From Candidatus Parcubacteria bacterium (GTDB lineage: Bacteria > Patescibacteriota > Minisyncoccia > JACPXH01), in assembly GCA_016196625.1 (NCBI GenBank), contig JACPXH010000004.1:71993-135992 (forward strand): a DNA stretch of 64,000 nucleotides. Direction: 5' to 3'. How positions within the stretch are numbered: position 1 is the first letter of the stretch; every line of letters starts with the position of its first letter. Below, one piece after another: positions 1,479 through 49,409 of the stretch. The position numbers and the translations under genes were made by a program. The notes under the pieces were generated by a model. It saw nothing but the letters and a program-made list of their open reading frames with translations. It made no database searches and was not told the origin of the DNA.

Positions 1479-2543
1479 AATGTTGTACGTCAGCTCAACC
1501 TGGTTTTCATTACCGGATCTGTCGCGGGCGATGACGGTAATGGTAAGGGTCTGGCCCATTGAACGCGGCGGGAAAAGCGAGCACTCTGGCTCGAGTAGTG
1601 TGCCGCAGCGCATCCCAGCCCGAAGGAGCACGCCGGCGTTGAACTGTGATTTTGGGGACAACGACAGGACATACCCGTAAGGCGTAAGCCGACCAAACAT
1701 ACCGAATAGCCAGCCCACTCCTGCGGTTACGTCCTGACCGTTCGCCAGAACCTGCACGCTTGCGATGTCTTCCCTGCCGTCTGGGTCTGAAATCGCAATC
1801 TGAAAGTCCTGGCCTTGGTAAGAGACTTGACCTGACGCTGGCCAAATCTCCACTTCCGGCAGCCCGGAAGCCCGCAGCTGTTGGTCGCTTCGGCTCGGCG
1901 CCGGGTAGAGATAGTGGATACCAGCGATGTCGTCCGGGTGGAGCGGAAACCACTCTACTCCGATTGGCACGCCGCCGTGGCCCATGACCGGGCCGCCAAT
2001 GCCTGGAAACTGGCTCGGGTCCGGATGCCCCAAGCCCGAGACATGGCCGATTTCGTGCACCATGTCTGCGTAAAACACCTCCTTGTGCCGGCCAACCATG
2101 CCGTGATTCGTCCCGACCTTCACCCGACCATACAGCATGGCCATGGTGCCGCGCGACCGGTGAGCGATTAGGTAGGCCGAGGTCTTGTTATCGTCGGTGA
2201 AGTACACTTGGATTAGCGGTTTCGGATTGGCTGGGTCGAACGTGGCATTCGGTTCATACCGAAACCGCACGTACGCTTCCGGCACTTCTTCCCAAGCCCG
2301 GAACGCCCGGTGGATGACTTCGATCGGGTCGAACGGCGGGACGATCTGGCCGGGCCGCACGACTGGGTAAGCCGCGAGGCTTGCGAAATCAATCGTGTAG
2401 GGAATGGGCATATCAGCCGCATCCCACACGCAAAACTCGATGGGCTTGCACAGCCGCTCGAACGCCGACGTTGCCGTAGGTACTCCGACGAAGAGCGCAA
2501 TCAGGACCAGCCTGACTGCGCTCTTCCTCCAAAGCGCAGTCAT
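1470..2543 (-). CDS. Secreted zinc metalloprotease, metzincin/matrixin-like
   Basis: HEIGHVSGLGH matches HExxHxxGxxH. N-terminal signal peptide. SD GAGGAGGAAAACC precedes the ATG. Confidence 0.7.
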   Translation of the reverse strand: MTALWRKSAVRLVLIALFVGVPTATSAFERLCKPIEFCVWDAADMPIPYTIDFASLAAYPVVRPGQIVPPFDPIEVIHRAFRAWEEVPEAYVRFRYEPNATFDPANPKPLIQVYFTDDNKTSAYLIAHRSRGTMAMLYGRVKVGTNHGMVGRHKEVFYADMVHEIGHVSGLGHPDPSQFPGIGGPVMGHGGVPIGVEWFPLHPDDIAGIHYLYPAPSRSDQQLRASGLPEVEIWPASGQVSYQGQDFQIAISDPDGREDIASVQVLANGQDVTAGVGWLFGMFGRLTPYGYVLSLSPKSQFNAGVLLRAGMRCGTLLEPECSLFPPRSMGQTLTITVIARDRSGNENQVELTYNIVP

Positions 2544-2686
2544 GGTTTTCCTCCTCGGCCTCCGTAGCTTTAGCGCAGGAGGCCTTGCCCGTCAGCTGTC
2601 AGGCGATTGGGGCTTGCTCCGTACCATCACCTCAATTGTCAAACATCAATCCTCCTACTCTCTAGACCGAAGTTTACTACCTAACA

Positions 2687-5029
2687 TTACTCCTTGTCAA
2701 GCTCTTTGTTTTTGTTTTCTGGCAAAAACCGACGGATACCGACCAAGGCGACAATCACAACGAAAAGAAGTACAGCCGCTCCGATAAGGACATTCTGCTC
2801 CCGTGAACTCTTAGCCGGAGTACGGTTGCTCACGACCCGCACGACCTGACCGCGAGCGACGTCAACGACAGTCAGCGCGTGCTGGCTGGCGTGGAGCGCG
2901 TACAGTTCGCCGGTGCGCTGATTGAAAGCCGCGTACGAAACCGGAAACAGGAGCGTGGCGATGGCAGAGACGGCCTGATCAGCCGGGTTAAACCGAAGGA
3001 GTTGGCGCTGCGAGACACGGTCGCTAAACAGCACTTCGCCGCTTGACTGAAGAACCGGCGGCGCGACGCCCGTTGACGCGAGCGCCTGATCAAGATGCGT
3101 CCGGCTTGTCACCGACAAACTCTCCGGATCGACCATGATTATCTCGGCGCCAGCTGAAAGATTCTGACCCACGATAATGCCCGCTTTCGTATCGGCAATG
3201 CCCACGGCCTCTCCGGCGAGAGAAACCTGCTGTTCGAGCGTGGCGCGGTCCGCATCAATGAGCGCTATCGTGCTCGGCGAACGTGTAAGCACAACCGCGC
3301 CCGCCCCGCGCTCAGGGAAGACCGGCCCCACGATTGGCGCACCGAGTTCAACGCGCCCCACCTCGCGAAGCGCTGCGGTATCAATGAGGCTCACGGAGTT
3401 GTCGGCGGTGTTGGCAACCGCGACCCGACTGATCGCCGGCTGGACCGCAATGAGCAAGGGCGCGTTGCCAACCGAGATTGTCTGAACTACCTCATCCTTT
3501 GTGGCATCCACGACGCTCACCGAATTGCTGTCCTGGTTCACCACGAAGAGCCGCCGGGTAACGGGATCGTAGCGCATGGTGCGCGGTTTCTTGCCCACCG
3601 CGATCCGTTTTTTCACGCGGCGAGCCTCACGGTCAAGTACCATCACCACGTCCTCGTCACCACTCACCACATAGAGCTTGCCCACTTCAGGAACGTAGAG
3701 CGATGCGCGAGGGTTGCGGCCAAGCTGGGTCGTCCGGACAGCCGCCTGCGTCCGGCCCTCGATGACGGTGAGGAACCCGCCGATGTTGTTGACGACGTAC
3801 ACGCGCCCAGCCGCTTCGTTGACGGCCAAACCGATCGGCAAATCAAATACCGGTCCGGCGCGCCGCACGATCCGCCGAGGGTCTGCACCCCTTGGCAGAA
3901 ACGAAGTCTGGTTCGCGCTGACATCGAAGATGGTAAGAGTGTCGCTTTCTGGGTTCACGAAGTAGACCTCGCGCCGGCGCGCATTGAATGTGGCTTCGTC
4001 AGTGTTCGTGCCGCTTTCGAGCATGCGGACTACCTGCATGCGTTCGGTATCCACAACTGCCACGCGAGCCGAACCGGTGAGCGGCACGTAGAGTACGCCT
4101 CCCTCACTATCAAGCGTTGGCCGCCCGGGAAAAGAACCAGCGGGAAATTCGAGTTTTGATATGGCCTCCCCCACCGGTGAAATTTTCGCAACGGCGTTAC
4201 CCACAAAGAGCGTAACATACAACGTTCCCGTGGCCGCATCGAGCGCAAATCCCCGCGGGTCGCGGCCGACGACAATTTCTTTAGGCACGAACTCTCCTTC
4301 CGCCATCCTCACGGTAGAGGCGCCAACGGCGGGCGCGACGTAGAACGCCGACCGCTCGCTATCCACCAAGAGAAGCTGCGGGGAGAAAGGCAGCGGCACC
4401 GTACGAATCGCCAAGAGAGGTTCAGGCGCCAGGACCGTGATAGAGCGGCTGGTTTCGTTTGCGACATAAGCCGAGCCGGTTTTCGCATTGACAGCGACCT
4501 GAATAGGTCCGGTCCCGACCGCTGTTCCAGCCACCACGCGCGACGTGCTGGTATCGATGAGAGATACAGAATTTTCGATAAAGTTTACGACGAACAAACG
4601 CTTGCGCGCTGGATCGAGCGCGAGCGCGACCGGCCGTTTGCCTACTGGAATACGCCTAACCCCCCATGTATCTGGACGTATTTCGACTACGGAATTTGTC
4701 TGTCCATCGGTAAGGTAGAGCGCCCCGCTCTCGGAATCGAGCACCATGGCCTGAGCCCGAGGTGCCGCTTGGGCTCGACCGATCACCTCTTTTGTGCTGG
4801 CCCGGAAACCCACGACGATCCCGGATGCGTCGTTGAATACGAAAAAGCGATCGCGCGCCTCGTCAATCGCGATGAGCAACGGTTTCTCGAAAAGCGATGG
4901 TTGTGCCGGTGGCCGAACACGTGCCGAAACGAAAAAGACCGCTGCCAGCGCAACGGCTCCCGCGATGATGAAGCTCGGCCTGATCCAACGGCGCACCTGC
5001 ATCAACAGATACCGCCCGAGTTGCCACAT
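2687..5029 (-). CDS. YVTN-type beta-propeller repeat surface protein with N- and C-terminal TM anchors
   Basis: At least 10 degenerate ~40-aa repeats of the form ...ALDPxxxRLFVVNxxSNSVSVID... C-terminal hydrophobic helix then KNKELDKE. Likely start MWQLGRYLL. Confidence 0.6.
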   Translation of the reverse strand: MWQLGRYLLMQVRRWIRPSFIIAGAVALAAVFFVSARVRPPAQPSLFEKPLLIAIDEARDRFFVFNDASGIVVGFRASTKEVIGRAQAAPRAQAMVLDSESGALYLTDGQTNSVVEIRPDTWGVRRIPVGKRPVALALDPARKRLFVVNFIENSVSLIDTSTSRVVAGTAVGTGPIQVAVNAKTGSAYVANETSRSITVLAPEPLLAIRTVPLPFSPQLLLVDSERSAFYVAPAVGASTVRMAEGEFVPKEIVVGRDPRGFALDAATGTLYVTLFVGNAVAKISPVGEAISKLEFPAGSFPGRPTLDSEGGVLYVPLTGSARVAVVDTERMQVVRMLESGTNTDEATFNARRREVYFVNPESDTLTIFDVSANQTSFLPRGADPRRIVRRAGPVFDLPIGLAVNEAAGRVYVVNNIGGFLTVIEGRTQAAVRTTQLGRNPRASLYVPEVGKLYVVSGDEDVVMVLDREARRVKKRIAVGKKPRTMRYDPVTRRLFVVNQDSNSVSVVDATKDEVVQTISVGNAPLLIAVQPAISRVAVANTADNSVSLIDTAALREVGRVELGAPIVGPVFPERGAGAVVLTRSPSTIALIDADRATLEQQVSLAGEAVGIADTKAGIIVGQNLSAGAEIIMVDPESLSVTSRTHLDQALASTGVAPPVLQSSGEVLFSDRVSQRQLLRFNPADQAVSAIATLLFPVSYAAFNQRTGELYALHASQHALTVVDVARGQVVRVVSNRTPAKSSREQNVLIGAAVLLFVVIVALVGIRRFLPENKNKELDKE

Positions 5030-5345
5030 CCGCCCTGCCCGCCGCCGGCGTTCCCGCCGTCGCCCGGTGGTGACGGTGGTGACGTCCAACAGCTCGGATC
5101 ATTCACTTGCGCTGAAGCGATCGGCACCACGCCGCCCACGCCGCACGAGTTTGCGGCCGAATGTGGCTGCGAGGCCGATGATTTCGCCACGAGGCCGACG
5201 ACGAAAACCGTCAACCCCACCACGATGATACGCAGGAATTCACGGACAGACTGGAGCATATGTTGGTCAATCCAGTACACTAATACGTAGCGCCATCATA
5301 CCCCAAGACCCCTCCGTATACAACGCCGCTATCCACACCGCCACT

Positions 5346-6308
5346 GTGCCACGCAGCCTCCAGAAACTCTTGATTTACCTCAGCCGACTCCTCAAGCAGG
5401 ATGAACTTGTGTTGCTCGATCGCCTAATCCACCAACGCCTGGTAACGCCGGGTGAATTGACGCTCGAGCAAAATCAGTATGGCTACTGGGAGCACCTCGT
5501 TGACCACTGGGAGACGGTCGAGAGCCCGTTCCGTCCGAGTACCGAAGATATTGCTATCTATCGCGAGTTCCTCGCGAAGACCGGAAACGCCGGCCCTGTG
5601 CTTATCTTGGGTTCTACCCCGGAACTTCGAGATCTCACCGCAACCGCCGGCGCAGGCCGGGTGCACCTTGCTGACTTCTCCTACCGGATGCCCCTCGCCA
5701 TGCTTCGGTTCACAAAACACGTTGACCCGCTCGAGGAAATCTGGGTGCGGACCAACTGGCTTAAACTCCCCTTCCCTCCTGAATTCTTTGGCGCTATTCT
5801 CGGAGACCTTGCGCTCCAGCAGCTAACGCCCGAAGCAGAACCTCGCCTCCTTACGAAGATCGCAAAACTACTCAAGCCCGAAGGCGTCTTCATCGCGCGC
5901 TGTCAGGTACTCGACGAAACGGCTCTCGGCGATGATGTCGGCGCGATCGTTGCGCGATTCCGCGACCGTCCGCTGACGGACTGGCAAAGAGTATACTTCA
6001 TCGCCTCGCGGCTCTTGTGGCGCTTCGCCGACCGGGCCAACCGCAGACTCAACCGAACGCTCGCCGCACAAGAACTCACGGCGTGGGCAAACGAAACAGG
6101 AATGACGCAACCACTCCTAGCGAGCATCCACCAAGCCATTATTGAAGACCCGGCCGCGTTCCGGACATGGTCGCCGCCTGAAGAGCGCGCGCTCGTGGCG
6201 CTATTCTCCCGATACTTCACCGTGGTTGAAATGAAGCGCGCGAGCGACTACGAAGGCGCTGCGTGGTGCCCGATATTTCGCCTGCGCGTCAGGCAGAGCC
6301 CTTCGTGA
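5346..6308 (+). CDS. Putative class I SAM methyltransferase-fold protein with a degenerate G-loop
   Basis: VLILGSTPE...VHLADFS...ILGDLAL...LLKPEGVFI resemble MTase motifs I, post-I, II and III. GTG start. Confidence 0.35.
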   Translation: MPRSLQKLLIYLSRLLKQDELVLLDRLIHQRLVTPGELTLEQNQYGYWEHLVDHWETVESPFRPSTEDIAIYREFLAKTGNAGPVLILGSTPELRDLTATAGAGRVHLADFSYRMPLAMLRFTKHVDPLEEIWVRTNWLKLPFPPEFFGAILGDLALQQLTPEAEPRLLTKIAKLLKPEGVFIARCQVLDETALGDDVGAIVARFRDRPLTDWQRVYFIASRLLWRFADRANRRLNRTLAAQELTAWANETGMTQPLLASIHQAIIEDPAAFRTWSPPEERALVALFSRYFTVVEMKRASDYEGAAWCPIFRLRVRQSPS

Positions 6309-36486: not shown

Positions 36487-36897
36487 CTATTTGGGGTGCT
36501 TCGCGCCGTACTTGCTGCGCTGCTGCCTGCGACCTTCAACGCCCGTCGCATCTAAGACGCCTCGCACAATGTGGTAGCGCACCCCCGGCAGATCCTTCAC
36601 GCGCCCCCCCCGGATGAGCACAATCGAGTGCTCTTGGAGCGTATGCCCGATGCCGGGAATGTACGCCGTAACTTCCATGCCGTTGGTAAGCCGCACGCGC
36701 GCCACCTTGCGCAAGGCCGAGTTTGGCTTTTTGGGAGTCATAGTTTTAACTTGAATGCACACCCCGCGCTTCAAGGGCGAAGCGTACCGATAGGGCCGGT
36801 TCTTGAGGACGTTAAAACCACGCCAGAGCGCTGGTGATTTTGGTTTGCGGCGCGCTGTGGCTCGCGGCCGACGGATAAGTTGATGAATCGTTGGCAT
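36487..36897 (-). CDS. rpsL: 30S ribosomal protein S12
   Basis: S12 homology (PNSALRK motif). Confidence 0.95.
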
Positions 36898-36938
36898 AGC
36901 CTAGAAACGGTACTGCTTCAGGAACGTCGTGTCAAACG

Positions 36939-37604
36939 CTATGAGCCGCCGCCATCGAAGAACGACCCCTGACCGGTAATCGCGGTAAATAAGAAGCCCG
37001 CAAGCGGCGGAATAAGAATGGTGGCCACCAACACCGCAAGCAGCAACCCGAAGACCGATCGGTTGAGCAGCCCTTCGGCCGATGGCGGCAGCACGCGAGG
37101 CAGTATGCGAGAGCCGTCCAGTGGCGCAATGGGGATAAGGTTAAAGAGAGCGATGAAGATGTTGATGTAGGCCGTGAGCCCCAGCACAAAGATCGTCAAA
37201 TTCCCCGCCTCGGCCGGGAGACCGAAACCCCGCACAGCAGCTGGCGACAAAAACCGAACGGCCAAGCCCAGGATAACCGCGACGATCAGGTTCGCGGCCG
37301 GCCCGGCGGCCGCAACCTTGAGCTCGCCCAAGCGCCCGCGCAGTGCTCGCGGATCAATGGGTACGGGCTTAGCCCAACCGATGAAGACCCGAAATGCCAA
37401 AAGCGAAAGCAGCGGCATGAGCACCGTCCCGAAAAAATCAATATGCCGGAACGGATTAAGCGTCAACCTCCCCGCTTCCTTGGCCGTGGTGTCCCCCAGC
37501 TGTTCGGCTGTCCATGCATGGGCATACTCGTGCACTATGGCCGAGAAAACAATGATGATATAAATTAGGGCGTACTGTGCAAGGCCAGAAATCACGGTTG
37601 CCAA
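36939..37604 (-). CDS. Site-2-protease family (M50) membrane zinc metalloprotease
   Basis: HEYAHA (HExxH) in a TM helix plus downstream NLIPIAPLDG. TTG start. Confidence 0.7.
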   Translation of the reverse strand: MATVISGLAQYALIYIIIVFSAIVHEYAHAWTAEQLGDTTAKEAGRLTLNPFRHIDFFGTVLMPLLSLLAFRVFIGWAKPVPIDPRALRGRLGELKVAAAGPAANLIVAVILGLAVRFLSPAAVRGFGLPAEAGNLTIFVLGLTAYINIFIALFNLIPIAPLDGSRILPRVLPPSAEGLLNRSVFGLLLAVLVATILIPPLAGFLFTAITGQGSFFDGGGS

Positions 37605-37636
37605 GGACGCGAATATTAGATAGAATTGCGGGGCTT

Positions 37637-37825
37637 ATGGCTCGCGTGTGCACTATCTGCGGCAAGGGCCCGCATATGAGCGTAACGAGAAAGCTGTTAC
37701 GCGGCAAGTATAACCCGACGGCAAAAACGAGGAAATACCCCAATTTGCAATGGGTGCGTATTGGGGGTGGCAAACGCGTGAAGGCATGCACCCGGTGTAT
37801 CAAACGGCTGGCGGTGGCAAAATAA
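37637..37825 (+). CDS. rpmB: 50S ribosomal protein L28
   Basis: MARVCTICGKGPHMSVTRK...KACTRCIKR has Cys4 and L28 homology. TAGAAT -10-like box 10 nt upstream. Confidence 0.8.
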   Translation: MARVCTICGKGPHMSVTRKLLRGKYNPTAKTRKYPNLQWVRIGGGKRVKACTRCIKRLAVAK

Positions 37826-37989
37826 CTGATGGTTGTCGAACGCTATCGCGCCACCAAACAAAACAGCGGCTCGGAGCTCGGCAGCGCTACGTGACACCCG
37901 AAGCCACCGCGTCCCGCCTGAGTAAATGAGCTCTCATTGCTTTAAGAATGTTGCCCAAGGCGCTGGGCTGGACCGGGCACAAACGATTT

Positions 37990-38063
37990 CGGGGCGTCGT
38001 ACAATGGTAGTACGCAAGGCTGGGGGTCTTGTGACCGGGGTTCGATTCCCCGCGCCCCGACCA
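37990..38063 (+). tRNA. tRNA-Pro (anticodon GGG), CCA encoded
   Basis: Cloverleaf folded by hand: acceptor CGGGGCG/CGCCCCG, D-arm GTAC-AATGGTA-GTAC, anticodon arm CAAGG-CTGGGGG-TCTTG (U33, anticodon GGG, G37), T-arm CGGGG-TTCGATT-CCCCG, discriminator A, CCA. Confidence 0.8.
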
Positions 38064-38472
38064 AGTCAGACATTGAGAGTTTTCGGAAGAAGGTACGCGC
38101 TCGCTTCGCTCGCGCGCTGGGGGGATTTTATTCTGATTTTCCGCCACAATCCGCCATTCGCCCGACCAATCCCAACCGACTTGTTTGGCAAGCAGGCGGC
38201 GGTTCGTTCCAATTTTTTCCACAAACGATTTCACCAAATTGGGCTGCCTTCATTACGAAAGCGCGGGATATATTGATTAGTTGTGCATGGCTACTCATAT
38301 ATTAATGCCCTAGGTGATGTAAGATTATTGAATCATAACGCCGCCTTGACGAAACAAGAGGTATATGCTAGGATTGCTGACAGTATCGGAGATAGTCTCT
38401 GATATGCTCTACAGCGAGAGTGTCGCTGTGCAACAGCACCTTGAATCCAAAAACGAGAGGAGGTAAAACCCC

Positions 38473-39276
38473 ATGAGGGCCGTGACGCGCGAGCAAGCCC
38501 ACTGCCAATGCACGAGAAAAGAAAGGGAAAGGGGCAGTTGCAAAGAAAACCGGAGGGTCAAGTTTCTAGATGGCAGTTCGCTTCCGTCCATTCCCTACCT
38601 CGGAGAGAGTGACTACCATCGAGGGGAATGGCCCAAGAACGAACGCTGTAGTGATTGCCGTTGTTTGCCGGGACGATTTCATCATCCCGGTTGCGACATG
38701 GAAATATGTCCGCGTTGCAAGGGGCAAGCAATCAGATGCCCCTGCCTCAACGACTGGAAGGCGCAAAAGAGACAGGAAAAACAAGCGAAGAAGAAGTCGG
38801 AGAAAGAGGCAAGAGCGACACTCGGGCAGTTGAAACGCGAGCGGCGCGAACGAAAGCGTCAGATTCTCAAACAAGACGCCGAACATCGCCGCCTGCACAA
38901 AGACGGTTACACCTTTCTCTGTAACGGTGGTCCTGCGCCGGTAGACTTCAGCGAGGACTTCGTTCAAGAAGCTCTCGTCAAGAAGTGCGTTCGGCATGAT
39001 AACGTTGCGCAGTGTTCTACGACCTATGACGGCGACGGGAAACTTATCCCAGGCGAGATATCGCTGTGGGCGAAGGTCCCAAGAGTGGTCGCTCGAAAGT
39101 CCGAGAAGACTTTCGAATTCAAGAGAGTAGGGCCAGGCACGAAACGCGCCCGCTGGACCGTCTGGTACGAGGGACACACGAAGATCAAGGGATACGGGTT
39201 GACCAAGGAGGACGCGATCTACGACTTGGAAACCCGCCACAACCATGTACGGCTCAAAAAGCTGTACCCGGACTAG
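38473..39276 (+). CDS. Cys-rich hypothetical protein (N-terminal multi-Cys/His cluster, central K/R/E-rich segment) in a low-GC islet
   Basis: Strong SD AGGAGGT 8 nt upstream. Coding GC ~52% against ~62% local background. Followed by a strong terminator. Confidence 0.55.
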   Translation: MRAVTREQAHCQCTRKERERGSCKENRRVKFLDGSSLPSIPYLGESDYHRGEWPKNERCSDCRCLPGRFHHPGCDMEICPRCKGQAIRCPCLNDWKAQKRQEKQAKKKSEKEARATLGQLKRERRERKRQILKQDAEHRRLHKDGYTFLCNGGPAPVDFSEDFVQEALVKKCVRHDNVAQCSTTYDGDGKLIPGEISLWAKVPRVVARKSEKTFEFKRVGPGTKRARWTVWYEGHTKIKGYGLTKEDAIYDLETRHNHVRLKKLYPD

Positions 39277-39296
39277 CCACCCCGAAGTTCGTTCGC

Positions 39297-39334
39297 GCCC
39301 GCCATGTCTTCGGATCTGGCGGGCTTCTTTTTAT
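39297..39334 (+). terminator. Rho-independent terminator
   Basis: GCCCGCCA-12 nt loop-TGGCGGGC followed by TTCTTTTTAT. Confidence 0.6.
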
Positions 39335-39530
39335 CCTGATAGTATTCAATTAAAGTTCGCGCGACTTTCCAAAGCGAGGGCGGGGCGGGAATTCATGTTC
39401 CCCCACACCCCTTTTTCTTCCCGCCCCGTCCGAGCGTTAAGTTTTTGGTTCCTGCCGCGCCGCCCTCCGTCGCCAAGGCTTTGGCGGGCAGGCAAAGTAG
39501 GTTCGTACTGCGTTCAGTAATTGCGACCAA

Positions 39531-40295
39531 TTGAAACAAGTCGTCATCAACGACATCCTTATCGCGTACGACGCACTCCGGCACCCTGCACCGCAGCCGG
39601 AGACATTCGTCTTGCTGCACGGCTGGCGATCGCGCAAGGAAGTTTGGCGGGTGGTTGCCGAGCAACTATTCAGCCACGGGGACGTCTACGCCCTTGATCT
39701 GCCGGGCTTTGGAAACTCTGAAATCCCGGGCCGCGCGCTTACGGTTAGCGACTACGCTGACCTCGTGGCCGATTTTATACAGAAGTGCGAACTGAAGGCG
39801 CCGACCGTGATTGGCCACTCATTCGGCGGTCGGGTAACGATTGCGCTTGCTTCGATCCACCCGGAAAGTATCGGGAAGATTGTGCTGGTTGACAGCGCTG
39901 GCTTTATCAACGCTTCAGCAAAACGCCGCATTGCGAAGGCCGCAGCCAGACTGCTCCGCCCCTTGTTCCGACCTACCTTTATGGCTTCCCTCCGACAAAA
40001 AATCTATGAGCTCATAGGCGCAGAAGATTACGTCGCCACCCCCTGGCTGCGGCAGACATTCACGAACATTATCAACGAAGACTTGAGCGAACACCTGCGC
40101 GCCATTACGGCGCCAACGCTCCTCCTGTGGGGCAAAGACGACCGGGAAACTCCGCTCTCGTTCGCTACTCGTATGCGCGCCCTTATCGCCCGTTCGCGCC
40201 TCGTCGTTCTCGAAGGCGCGGGGCACTTCAGCTTTGCCGATCAGCCGAAAGCGTTCGTCGAGGCGGTACAAACATTCCTACGAGAAACGCCATGA
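39531..40295 (+). CDS. Alpha/beta-hydrolase fold protein
   Basis: HGW...GHSFGG nucleophile elbow and C-terminal His. Stop overlaps the murF ATG (ATGA). Confidence 0.65.
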   Translation: MKQVVINDILIAYDALRHPAPQPETFVLLHGWRSRKEVWRVVAEQLFSHGDVYALDLPGFGNSEIPGRALTVSDYADLVADFIQKCELKAPTVIGHSFGGRVTIALASIHPESIGKIVLVDSAGFINASAKRRIAKAAARLLRPLFRPTFMASLRQKIYELIGAEDYVATPWLRQTFTNIINEDLSEHLRAITAPTLLLWGKDDRETPLSFATRMRALIARSRLVVLEGAGHFSFADQPKAFVEAVQTFLRETP

Positions 40296-41755
40296 ACCTG
40301 CCCGCCGTCTGGGACTACCAGCTCTACCTCCTGCAGCTCGAGCAGTATGAACTTGCGCGCTACTGGAAACTGCTCCGCCTCAAGGGATTATTTCCTCCAA
40401 AGTCTGGCCTGCGTAAGTCTCTGCATTGGACACTCAAGGCGCGCGTCATCTGGCTTCTTGCGTGCACCATACACCTGGCCATCCTCGTTTTCGCGCTCGA
40501 GCGTCTCTCCCGCTTGGACTACGCGCTCGGGTTTGCGGCTCTCGGCGTATGGGTATTGCTGGCGTCCGCCGGCCCGTGCCTCCTCTATACACTCTCGACC
40601 GCGTTGCTATTGCCGGCAGACTTTTTCGTAAAACGCCGGATCATCGCTGCCGCTCGCAGGAAGATGCATAGGCTCAAAAACATCATGGTTGTCGCCATCG
40701 CCGGCAGCTACGGCAAAACGACCATGAAACGCGTGTTGCAGGCGGTCTTGTCCGCACAGCTCCCAGTCGCCGCAACACCAGAGAGCGTGAACACCCCACT
40801 CGGCATTGCGCGCTTTATCTTGCAGGAAGTCAGCCCTGATACCACAGTACTTATCCTTGAGCTCGGAGAGCACTACCGGGGAGACGTAGCGCACTTGTGC
40901 ACCATCGCCGAGCCGAATACCGTCATCATTACCGGCATCAACGAAGCGCACCTGGAGCGCATGGGTGATGTAGCCACCGTGGCCGCGACCGTCTTTGAAG
41001 CGGTCGAACACGCGAAGCCGAAAGCACTCGTGGTGCTCAACGCCGACGATGAAAACGTGCGCGCGCATTGCAACCAGATTGTGATACCCCCAGATCGCCT
41101 TGCATTCTTTAGCGCCGCAAACCATCCCCTGTGCCGTTACCGGATACAGAACGAAGAGTTCCTTGAAGACGGATCGGGCATCCGGGGCACCCTGACGTTT
41201 CCCGAGGAGGACGCGTGCGCCGCTATACATTTTCACATCCCGCTTGTGGGAACCCATGCGCTTGGCACCCTGGTGGCCGCGTGTCTGGTGGCCAGGCATT
41301 TGGGGCTAAACCGAACAGAAATCCAAATCGGTATAAGCCAGATTCGTCCCGTGGAACATCGCCTGCAGGTCTTGAAAGGCACAGACAACATCCTGATCAT
41401 TGACGACAGCTACTCTGGAAATCCTGCGGGCGTGCAAGAAGCCATCGGCGCCCTGAGTCGGTTTCGGAGCCGCCGGAAAATCTATCTGACCCCGGGGTTA
41501 GCGGAAACGGGATCTCGCGCCGGAACACTCCACCGCGAAATCGGCGCGGCACTCGCGCGCGTGGCCGACGTCGTCATCCTCATCCGCAACAGCGTAACTC
41601 CCTTGCTCGCCGAGGGGTTGCGGCAATCTGGCTTTCAGGAACGCCGTATTGTATGGTTTGAGCATGCGGCCGCTGCCCACGCCGCGTTACCCCACATCCT
41701 CAAGCCGGGCGATGTGATTCTGTTCCAGAACGACTGGGGCGACCAATACGTATAA
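40292..41755 (+). CDS. murF: Mur-ligase family protein, MurF-like, with N-terminal membrane segment
   Basis: P-loop IAGSYGKTT. Mur ligase middle and C-terminal motifs (DDSYSGNP). Residues 1-150 are hydrophobic helices. Confidence 0.65.
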   Translation: MNLPAVWDYQLYLLQLEQYELARYWKLLRLKGLFPPKSGLRKSLHWTLKARVIWLLACTIHLAILVFALERLSRLDYALGFAALGVWVLLASAGPCLLYTLSTALLLPADFFVKRRIIAAARRKMHRLKNIMVVAIAGSYGKTTMKRVLQAVLSAQLPVAATPESVNTPLGIARFILQEVSPDTTVLILELGEHYRGDVAHLCTIAEPNTVIITGINEAHLERMGDVATVAATVFEAVEHAKPKALVVLNADDENVRAHCNQIVIPPDRLAFFSAANHPLCRYRIQNEEFLEDGSGIRGTLTFPEEDACAAIHFHIPLVGTHALGTLVAACLVARHLGLNRTEIQIGISQIRPVEHRLQVLKGTDNILIIDDSYSGNPAGVQEAIGALSRFRSRRKIYLTPGLAETGSRAGTLHREIGAALARVADVVILIRNSVTPLLAEGLRQSGFQERRIVWFEHAAAAHAALPHILKPGDVILFQNDWGDQYV

Positions 41756-47892: not shown

Positions 47893-48411
47893 TCAAAACT
47901 CAATGCCCCGGCGCGCGAGAAGGCCACTTCGATAGTAGTGCTTGACCTCGCGCACCTCGGAGACGAGATCAGCGATTGCAATAAGCTGCTTGGGCGCGTC
48001 GCGGCCAGTTACGATAATCTCGCGATTCTTTTTCACCCTTTTTAGAAACCGCACCACCTCGCCAACCGCCAAGAGTTTAAGCGCGAGCGCGTTGTTGAGT
48101 TCGTCAAAAATTACGATGTCTGCCTCTCGTTTTTGGAGCGCACGCTTGCCGCGTCGCCACGTCTCTTGTGCGGCTCTTCGATGAACTGAGCGCGGCAGCT
48201 TATCTCCCAAAATCCCCACAAACCCCTTGCCGCCTTTAATAATTCGAAATTTATCGCCAAAAACTTTCACCGCTTCATCCTCGCCAGACTTCCACGGCCC
48301 CTTGATAAACTGGAACATCAAAACCGCCCTCCCCTCACCGACCGCCCGCAACGCTTGCCCCAAGGCCGCGGTGGTTTTGCCTTTGCCGTGGCCGGTGAAA
48401 AGGTAGATCAT
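47893..48411 (-). CDS. cobO: ATP:cob(I)alamin adenosyltransferase (CobO/BtuR/PduO-unrelated CobA family)
   Basis: P-loop GHGKGKTTAALGQALRAVGEG and family homology. Confidence 0.75.
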   Translation of the reverse strand: MIYLFTGHGKGKTTAALGQALRAVGEGRAVLMFQFIKGPWKSGEDEAVKVFGDKFRIIKGGKGFVGILGDKLPRSVHRRAAQETWRRGKRALQKREADIVIFDELNNALALKLLAVGEVVRFLKRVKKNREIIVTGRDAPKQLIAIADLVSEVREVKHYYRSGLLARRGIEF

Positions 48412-49409
48412 CGAATCTCAAACGGTGCGGAGTAGAAAGCATCTCGAGGTTCTGAAGTACGAAAGATGGTGCGGTAAGTACCCCTTACAGCATCGGGAGC
48501 TGGTTTTTTGCCAACGCAACTGTATGTTCCCGAAACATCGCTCAGGTACGTCCCGTTAAATAAAAGCTCGGTATCAAGTTTGTCTACTACCATTTCACCC
48601 GGCTTGAGTTCCCGACTGGGAACAATAGTGAGAAGGTTTGGGAGACACGAACGCACTTGATGCCATGTACCAGTAGTTTCCTGCCATCGTTCCACCCAAC
48701 TCGAAAAAGGCGGCTTCAGTCTCGCGCTCGAACGACCACCATAGAGGAATAATTTTGAAGTGCTATTCGTGATAGTAATCTTTACGCTATCTCCGCGGGC
48801 ATAGCTTGGTTTATCTACGTCCACGCGTATCTCCCTTGCGGTCGGCTCAATGAATTTGAAGGTGGAGAGAATTTGATTGGGTTCATCAACACCCGGCGGA
48901 ATATAAAGATCAACCGCATAAACTCCCACTCGATCATCAAAGGGAACATAGATCGATATATGACTCGGATCATAAATGTACTTATCGCTTGCGCGTCCAG
49001 CAACAACTATATCCTCTCGGGCAACTTCTTGCGGCATTGCTTCTCTAATCGTTGATAACATCTTGTTTTGTATACTCAAGCCGAAGTACGTTTTTGCAAT
49101 CCCTGGATTATTGGGGGGATCAAGGATGATTGACTCTGGCGAATACTCCGCCAACCTCCAGTTTGCTGGATAGCTTAATTCAAACCCATACTGCTCATTG
49201 CGATAGGTTTTCCACGTCGAGGTGTCTGGTAACGTGGCGGCCTTCCGGGGGATCGGCTCGGTGGCAGCGCGTTCGGTCTCAAGGAACGCACGGTTGGTGT
49301 CAAGCAACGCACTCATCGAGAGCTGGGCCGCGATGATCGCGGCCAACCCGAACACCGCCCAGCAGGTGAGTGAGCCATATGTGCCCCAGAGCGAACGGAG
49401 GCGTTGCAT
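48408..49409 (-). CDS. Hypothetical membrane-anchored/secreted protein (lower GC)
   Basis: N-terminal TM segment. No known motif. Stop overlaps the cobO start. Confidence 0.45.
   Translation of the reverse strand: MQRLRSLWGTYGSLTCWAVFGLAAIIAAQLSMSALLDTNRAFLETERAATEPIPRKAATLPDTSTWKTYRNEQYGFELSYPANWRLAEYSPESIILDPPNNPGIAKTYFGLSIQNKMLSTIREAMPQEVAREDIVVAGRASDKYIYDPSHISIYVPFDDRVGVYAVDLYIPPGVDEPNQILSTFKFIEPTAREIRVDVDKPSYARGDSVKITITNSTSKLFLYGGRSSARLKPPFSSWVERWQETTGTWHQVRSCLPNLLTIVPSRELKPGEMVVDKLDTELLFNGTYLSDVSGTYSCVGKKPAPDAVRGTYRTIFRTSEPRDAFYSAPFEIR

Follow-up and report, generated by a model that had tools for sequence, protein, structure and literature searches.

Phage morons are autonomous promoter-gene-terminator units located between conserved genes of lambdoid phages. 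The large serine recombinases, i.e., the phiC31- and Bxb1-type integrases, are not classically tRNA-targeting enzymes. Free-standing homing genes, such as seg and mob, are found in T4-like phages (PMC2988022, PMC2790892). Here, we describe a gene cassette of about 1 kb that can be compared with all three. It occupies positions 38346-39335 of a 64,000-nucleotide stretch of Candidatus Parcubacteria bacterium DNA (assembly GCA_016196625.1, contig JACPXH010000004.1), hereafter called the window, and it starts on the 3′ side of a tRNA-Pro(GGG) gene at 37990-38063.

Comparisons with related loci, which we designate by L numbers, indicate that the cassette is horizontally mobile between Parcubacteria genomes, and they show a preference for the flanks of tRNA genes. 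We tentatively favor an account in which it is a mobile cassette, likely the cargo of a recombinase element, whose protein is an adaptor or regulator built on a zinc module. Within this account our confidence is higher for mobility and low for molecular function. Most likely, the cassette would be the surviving cargo of a large-serine-recombinase element that, in Parcubacteria, targets tRNA genes and inserts at their 3′ ends. In the genome of the window the recombinase and the arms of the element would have decayed, leaving the cassette and a vestigial hairpin after the tRNA. The product would combine a Cys/His module predicted to hold two or three zinc ions, a rigid charged helix and a family-specific alpha/beta domain.

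The cassette was found in at least six different contexts in Parcubacteria. It follows tRNA-Pro(GGG) in the window and in L107, whose contig ends within the tRNA, tRNA-Leu(TAA) in L004, L005, L006, L007, L015 and L016, and tRNA-Lys(UUU) in L009 and L011. It lies between mreB and mreC in L001, L002, L003 and L018, with its promoter lost and its terminator kept. The L010 copy neighbors a Band_7 gene and a MamI restriction-modification pair, and the L106 copy has another setting. Copies of the L015, L016, L009 and L001 types come from Parcubacteria of Hainich groundwater. Three of these six or seven contexts are thus tRNA-adjacent, vs approximately 3-5% of intergenic spacers, which by our own estimate corresponds to a binomial probability of about 1e-3.

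The DNA of the window is 71-79% identical to the other copies over a span that reaches from about 110 nucleotides (nt) before the ATG to 57-74 nt past the stop codon. This shared unit comprises a promoter, a two-hairpin leader, one open reading frame (ORF) and a terminator (Table 1). The −35 and −10 boxes are kept in L015, L016, L017, L005, L009, L010, L107 and L106, with TTGAC(A/G)-17-TAnnAT as the consensus across copies. The leader, of about 90 nt, has a minimum free energy of −28.8 kcal/mol (z −3.1). In an alignment of eight copies, 96.8% of the cells are paired and three pairs show compensatory changes, and the covariation score was equalled by 2 of 500 shuffles. A covariance model built on the leader matches solely upstream of the cassette gene, once per locus, and comparison of the leader with Rfam gave no family match. 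Evidence from these eight sequences for a putative RNA structure is moderate, not strong. At the other end of the unit, the terminator hairpin (39297-39324; ΔG −22.6 kcal/mol, z −2.6) was overlooked by a simple consensus scan because its stem has internal loops; in other loci the stem varies from CCCGCC/GGCGGG to CCCACC/GGTGGG and to CTCGCC/GGCGAG. A single gene is framed by its own promoter and its own terminator, both conserved with it across contexts, and the architecture of the transcription unit is autonomous.

Table 1. Features of the tRNA-Pro locus and of the cassette, in window coordinates
Feature	Position	Strand	Details
tRNA-Pro(GGG)	37990..38063	+	ARAGORN; Rfam tRNA, 59.7 bits; cassette on its 3′ side
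Post-tRNA hairpin	38096..38116	+	Stem CGCGC/GCGCG, loop TCGCTTCGCTC
AT-rich spacer	38171..38345	.	GC 0.45; no significant blastn match to family loci
Sigma-70-type promoter	38346..38374	+	TTGACG-17 nt-TAGGAT with upstream TG; consensus scan; left edge of homology
5′ leader	38381..38472	+	P1 38383-38405; P2 38410-38430 (loop GAGUG); Shine-Dalgarno GGAGG 38459-38463
Coding sequence, 267 residues	38473..39276	+	Preceded by GGAGG 38459-38463
Multi-zinc Cys/His module, residues 11-92	38503-38748	+	Predicted from ligand pattern
Charged single long helix, residues 95-143	38755-38901	+	K/R/E-rich
Family-specific alpha/beta domain, residues 144-267	38902-39273	+	Last ~60 residues like the HicB-N/TTHA0281/dsRBD fold
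Intrinsic terminator	39297..39333	+	GCCCGCC...GGCGGGC, then UUCUUUUUAU; right edge of homology

Base composition and gene content of the hosts bear on transfer. The ORF has a GC content of 0.47-0.55 in every host. Flanking GC varies more: most loci have 0.40-0.43, L107 has 0.50 and the window 0.58. By this measure the cassette is a high-GC island in hosts of about 40% GC and near-native in the window, and the window lineage may accordingly be closer to the donor than a recent recipient would be. The closest copies, L015-L017 (76% amino acid and 79% nucleotide identity, dS 0.74), have a GC content at third codon positions (GC3) of 0.62-0.63 in hosts of 0.40-0.43 GC, vs 0.50 in the more divergent copies L001 and L010, as expected from amelioration after arrival from a GC-richer donor. 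The gene is absent from L012, L013 and L014, which keep the order hydrolase-murF-(alr)-ddl. These are distant relatives, with 52% identity in the hydrolase, and 52% is also the identity of the best non-self homolog of the neighboring hydrolase of the window among 3,917 matches. Upstream of its hydrolase and tRNA-Pro(CGG) genes, L014 carries at 3048-4377 a GIY-YIG gene and a gene for an unknown protein of 257 residues; the latter, at the position equivalent to that of the cassette gene, is unrelated to the cassette protein. The content of this spacer shows that the locus upstream of the hydrolase is variable in other lineages too.

The link to a recombinase comes from L015, in which a minus-strand gene between tRNA-Leu and the cassette encodes a large serine recombinase of 536 residues (Resolvase, Recombinase, Zn_ribbon_recom). 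At 3885-5640 of this locus, a perfect 103-nt inverted repeat, consisting of the last 7 nt of tRNA-Leu and the post-tRNA arm, brackets the recombinase gene, and the tail of the recombinase ORF runs antisense through arm and tRNA. L015, at tRNA-Leu, and L009, at tRNA-Lys, are homologous from the first base past CCA (score 50 vs 7.8 ± 1.4 for shuffled sequences), and the recombinase tail is encoded antisense to this arm. L005, L006, L004, L009 and L011 retain remnants of the tail (residues 458-500, 50-54% identity). Because of the L015 recombinase and of the 3′-end remnants in other loci, a decayed element that has lost its integrase is a reasonable reading of the window. There, the 11-nt loop of the post-tRNA hairpin is identical to one present at equal offset after tRNA-Leu in L015, on a different stem. 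The first 100 nt after the tRNA align between the window and L015 with a score of 15, vs 7.5 ± 1.3 for shuffled sequences, a score that none of 500 shuffles reached. The hairpin is probably the vestige of a longer element arm. The minus strand of the window also holds a weak collinear trace (E 0.028 for a 491-nt subject), which is in part the trivial antisense of the tRNA. The interval 37990-39530 has no integrase or recombinase ORF, and a tblastn search of the window with the L015 recombinase gave no match with E below 1; among the loci, L015 alone has a recombinase.

In the same neighborhood, a gene for an HNH_3 endonuclease of 156 residues lies between tRNA-Cys and tRNA-Leu in L005 (164-634) and L006 (5132-5602). 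The corresponding spacer of L015 (3762-3946) lacks it. A free-standing HNH gene right next to the cassette is polymorphic in its presence.

A first-pass annotation of the window, made from the sequence alone, had described a low-GC islet of about 1.4 kb behind the tRNA-Pro gene, against a background of about 62% GC, and had proposed that it was acquired horizontally as a decayed integrative island lacking an integrase. ARAGORN and Rfam both support its tRNA-Pro(GGG) call, and it was right about the missing integrase. The background is lower than it supposed, the window having a mean GC of 0.58, a value that still holds for the ~120 nt directly after the tRNA. The interval 38064-39530 as a whole has a GC of 0.533 (2nd percentile), and its sole strongly AT-rich part is 38171-38470 (0.45, the 0.3rd percentile of 300-nt windows). 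At 0.55, the ORF lies at the 8th percentile of equal-sized windows, and its GC3 of 0.64 is within one standard deviation of that of 28 long host ORFs (0.668 ± 0.047). As both the ORF and the post-tRNA DNA are close to host GC, the break consists mostly of one promoter-bearing spacer, not of a 1.4-kb islet. The direct repeat anticipated at the distal border, a copy of the tRNA-Pro 3′ end, is absent: local alignments of the tRNA to 38064-40000 scored at best 16-18, vs 19.6 ± 1.9 with shuffled sequences. Around the unit we found neither terminal inverted repeats nor target-site duplications that were convincing, and the homology of its flanks (38064-38345 and 39336-39535) to other loci is limited to the 21-nt post-tRNA hairpin. 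Horizontal acquisition is upheld by mobility across contexts and by absence from relatives; composition, which clearly deviates in all hosts of about 40% GC, is near native in the window. Similarly, the tRNA sites, the L015 recombinase and the remnants speak for a decayed integrative island, whereas the lack of an att-like repeat and the near-native composition do not.

The cassette is flanked in the window by genes for EF-G, S7, S12 and L28 and for MurF and Ddl. In a scan of 36500-40500 against Rfam the tRNA was the sole match. A 13-nt exact direct repeat, CACAAACGATTTC, occurs at 37978-37990 and 38220-38232, enclosing tRNA-Pro and 169 nt; these are its only two copies in 64 kb, vs 0.08 expected. 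Past the cassette terminator and ahead of the hydrolase gene, positions 39376-39433 form a G+C-rich stem of 14 bp that closes a loop of 26 nt (ΔG −35.5 kcal/mol, z −3.2) that has no homolog in related loci. The lowest-GC 300-nt stretch of the window lies elsewhere, at about 48700-49200 (0.43), within a minus-strand ORF of 333 residues at 48408-49409.

In the public annotation of Candidatus Parcubacteria bacterium, the cassette gene (HYZ80_01080) has a product of 192 residues, MBI3304904.1, with M76 as its first residue. This start is wrong, 75 codons too late, with omission of 38473-38697, and it cuts the Cys/His module in two. Homologs, Shine-Dalgarno sequence and dN/dS all agree in supporting the 267-residue start. 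The 12 homologs (55-76% identity), all metagenomic or from Parcubacteria/Patescibacteria, can be aligned from end to end, Cys-rich N terminus included. Each of the three parts of the protein has pairwise dN/dS values of 0.12-0.26, indicating purifying selection on the gene. The family is rare, with 12 members in 5.8 billion clusters and one in 185,579 species representatives. No full-length homolog was detected in 2.9 million viral contigs, nor a second copy of either protein domain within the window. Searches of Pfam, PHROGs, NCBIfam, PADLOC and PDB with the protein and the module homologs yielded nothing above threshold. Several features of the first-pass annotation were confirmed, namely the gene at 38473..39276 with its Shine-Dalgarno sequence, the N-terminal Cys/His cluster followed by a K/R/E-rich segment, and the strong Rho-independent terminator. 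Its description of the protein as an orphan was not, given that about 2,800 clusters, a family common in phages, share the N-terminal module. In L005 (1652-2057), and also in L006-L008 and L004, the 3′ part of the gene contains a perfect tandem duplication of 203 nt (two copies). This duplication is out of frame and yields a variant of 293 residues, P0007; the copy number differs in L004 (P0010).

An exhaustive profile search found the module in 2,821 representatives and 2,796 clusters, all annotated as hypothetical and many from large phages, and the C-terminal half solely within the cassette family. The module has no relative in Pfam, NCBIfam, PHROG, PADLOC or PDB, and our literature search on the HHPGC(D) motif found no paper. 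Its invariant residues are C59, C62, H70, H71, C74, D75, E77, C79, P80, C82, Q85 and C89, and C11, C14, C23, D33, G34, H60, D61 and C91 are nearly invariant. The minimal core, of 40 residues, has eight ligands in the arrangement C-x2-C-x7-H-x3-C-x4-C-x2-C-x6-C-x-C, which would probably suffice for two zinc ions; the N-terminal CxxC...C could hold a third.

The module is present in 91 IMG/VR loci, on viral contigs of up to 548 kb, in cluster C mycobacteriophages, among them I3 (gene 274), Sauce (261), JayJay (264) and Tonenili, and on apparently complete phage genomes of about 168 kb. The latter are L021, L022 and L023, each of 168,595 bp, obtained from different samples and circularly permuted, which probably represent a complete large phage genome; their stand-alone module gene, P0287, has methyltransferase genes and many small unknown ORFs as neighbors. 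The commonest form is a stand-alone protein of 64-130 residues with an acidic tail. The module is also fused to RelA_SpoT, to YbjN, to a second module with a bPH-like region and to an N terminus with a HEPN-like RxxxxH motif, and it occurs in very large phage proteins of 876 and 1236 residues (examples of fusions are P0196, P0217, P0240, P0192, P0242, L072 at 2365-3201, L068 and L100). The RelA_SpoT fusions match the PADLOC candidate PDC-S33. Such promiscuity fits a binding role better than a catalytic one. One phage group has a radical SAM gene among the module neighbors, and another has a DNA invertase gene. The genes upstream of stand-alone modules on two phage contigs, possible partners, are related neither to one another nor to the C-terminal domain of the cassette protein.

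The last ~60 residues of the cassette protein show a weak likeness to the HicB-N/TTHA0281/dsRBD fold, a beta-beta-beta-alpha unit. We infer that the module is a binding unit, or adaptor, rather than an enzyme, and that the protein would bind nucleic acid or a partner protein in conflicts between phage and host or element and host. It may also regulate its own conserved leader.

Could the cassette gene instead be an ordinary, vertically inherited accessory regulator, its varied contexts reflecting the poor synteny of bacteria of the candidate phyla radiation (CPR)? Purifying selection, the position after tRNA-Pro(GGG) shared with L107, and GC and GC3 values within the host range in the window would all agree with this. 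We nevertheless hold it to be very improbable in view of the GC3 of 0.50-0.63 in hosts of 0.40-0.43 GC, of the insertion, terminator included, inside the mreB-mreC operon, and of the presence of only 12 members in the clusters and one in the species representatives surveyed. Moreover, noncoding promoter, leader and terminator DNA is 71-79% identical where hydrolase homologs reach at most 52%. Alternatively, the cassette might be a single-gene defense or toxin-antitoxin-like system kept at a hot spot beside tRNA genes. Its zinc module would sense a phage component, and its HicB-like domain would act on RNA or neutralize a partner. The HicB-N/TTHA0281-like C terminus suits such a role, as do the fusions of the module to RelA_SpoT matching PDC-S33 and to a HEPN-like N terminus, the MamI restriction enzyme and methylase next to the L010 copy, and the combination of horizontal transfer with a hot-spot position, which is typical of defense genes. 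This remains rather unlikely, since the protein itself has no PADLOC match and no recognizable effector domain, and the cassette is monocistronic, with no HicA or other partner and with neighbors that vary by context.

The protein of a free-standing selfish gene of the homing-endonuclease type would cut a conserved site in cassette-free genomes, for example a tRNA gene, its flank or the mreB-mreC junction, whereupon double-strand-break repair would copy in the cassette together with flanks of varying length. The cassette has the expected features: it is patchy, lies between conserved genes, is framed by a promoter and a terminator of its own, and its borders of homology are fuzzy and free of att repeats, terminal inverted repeats and target-site duplications. 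Such insertion is what has been described for homing endonuclease genes that stand free in T4-like phages (PMC2988022). The HNH_3 gene in the neighboring tRNA spacer has a similar presence/absence pattern, and the invariant H70, H71, D75, E77 and Q85 of the module are bracketed by two CxxC pairs. However, the AF2 model has no beta-beta-alpha unit and no HNH profile match or beta-beta-alpha-metal fold was found (hhalign against an HNH protein gave a probability of 0.8%), and the C-terminal domain has no PD-(D/E)xK-like fold. A binding module also fits better with the prevalent stand-alone phage proteins of 80-110 residues with an acidic tail and with the RelA_SpoT, YbjN and bPH-like fusions. 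Homing of this type is therefore improbable. We see only a slim chance that the cassette is a new kind of autonomous selfish gene, in which the zinc-module protein would direct or catalyze insertion at tRNA genes and other conserved sites with the involvement of the leader hairpins. Were this the case, the Cys/His module of ~2,800 clusters would be a new class of nucleic-acid-targeting domain.

Several observations also weigh against the account that we favor, a cassette carried as cargo by a recombinase element. The window has neither recombinase nor att repeat, terminal inverted repeat or target-site duplication. The recombinase link depends on a single short-read contig, L015, whose 103-nt inverted repeat may reflect either a true inversion or an artifact of assembly. 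Given its near-native composition, the gene could be old in the window lineage or ancestral to it. Host relationships were deduced from GC content and one neighbor gene because the related loci are all metagenomic. The 293 neighbors of the module in 77 viral loci include no recurrent informative family, and zinc binding, nucleic-acid binding and autoregulation are inferences.

The cassette illustrates gene-sized horizontal transfer, regulatory DNA included, among CPR bacteria of very different GC content (0.40 vs 0.58), with tRNA flanks serving as landing sites, a useful example since the mobile elements of CPR bacteria are poorly known. The analysis also exposes a large, unannotated, phage-common family of zinc modules, ~2,800 clusters with no Pfam entry and no solved structure. 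Its function is genetically testable in cultured cluster C mycobacteriophages, which carry module genes. On the practical side, correcting the public gene start would restore a module that the current annotation splits.

The locus agrees with no known family in every respect. Although the C terminus weakly recalls the HicB antitoxin, TTHA0281 (UPF0150) and dsRBD folds, it shares no sequence similarity with them. The unit is monocistronic with neighbors that vary per locus and no adjacent hicA, the protein has no Pfam match to a ribbon-helix-helix or helix-turn-helix domain, and, unlike in HicB, the HicB-like fold is at the C terminus, behind a zinc module and a long helix. With binuclear zinc modules (RING, PHD, IBR, C1), the cassette module shares eight ligands in ~40 residues and promiscuous fusions. 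The resemblance is one of ligand pattern only, as the module has no Pfam match and an extra N-terminal CxxC...C, and the IBR, C1 and PHD structures among its best Foldseek rows have E values above 2, which are not significant. Like seg and mob, the cassette is intergenic and patchy, with its own regulatory signals and no border repeats, but its protein lacks a recognizable nuclease motif or fold. It differs from phage morons in residing in cellular chromosomes rather than in a phage or prophage and in carrying a conserved structured leader, and resembles them in that one gene, of deviant composition in most hosts and encoding a phage-common module, lies between conserved genes and brings along both a promoter and a terminator. 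Compared with tRNA-flank islets of large-serine-recombinase elements, the window lacks an integrase and att repeat, only ~1 kb is shared and the ends of the element are undefined. In contrast, the location 3′ of three tRNAs, the recombinase in L015 and the absence from syntenic relatives are those of such islets. The cassette fits a tRNA-flank islet or a moron-like cassette.

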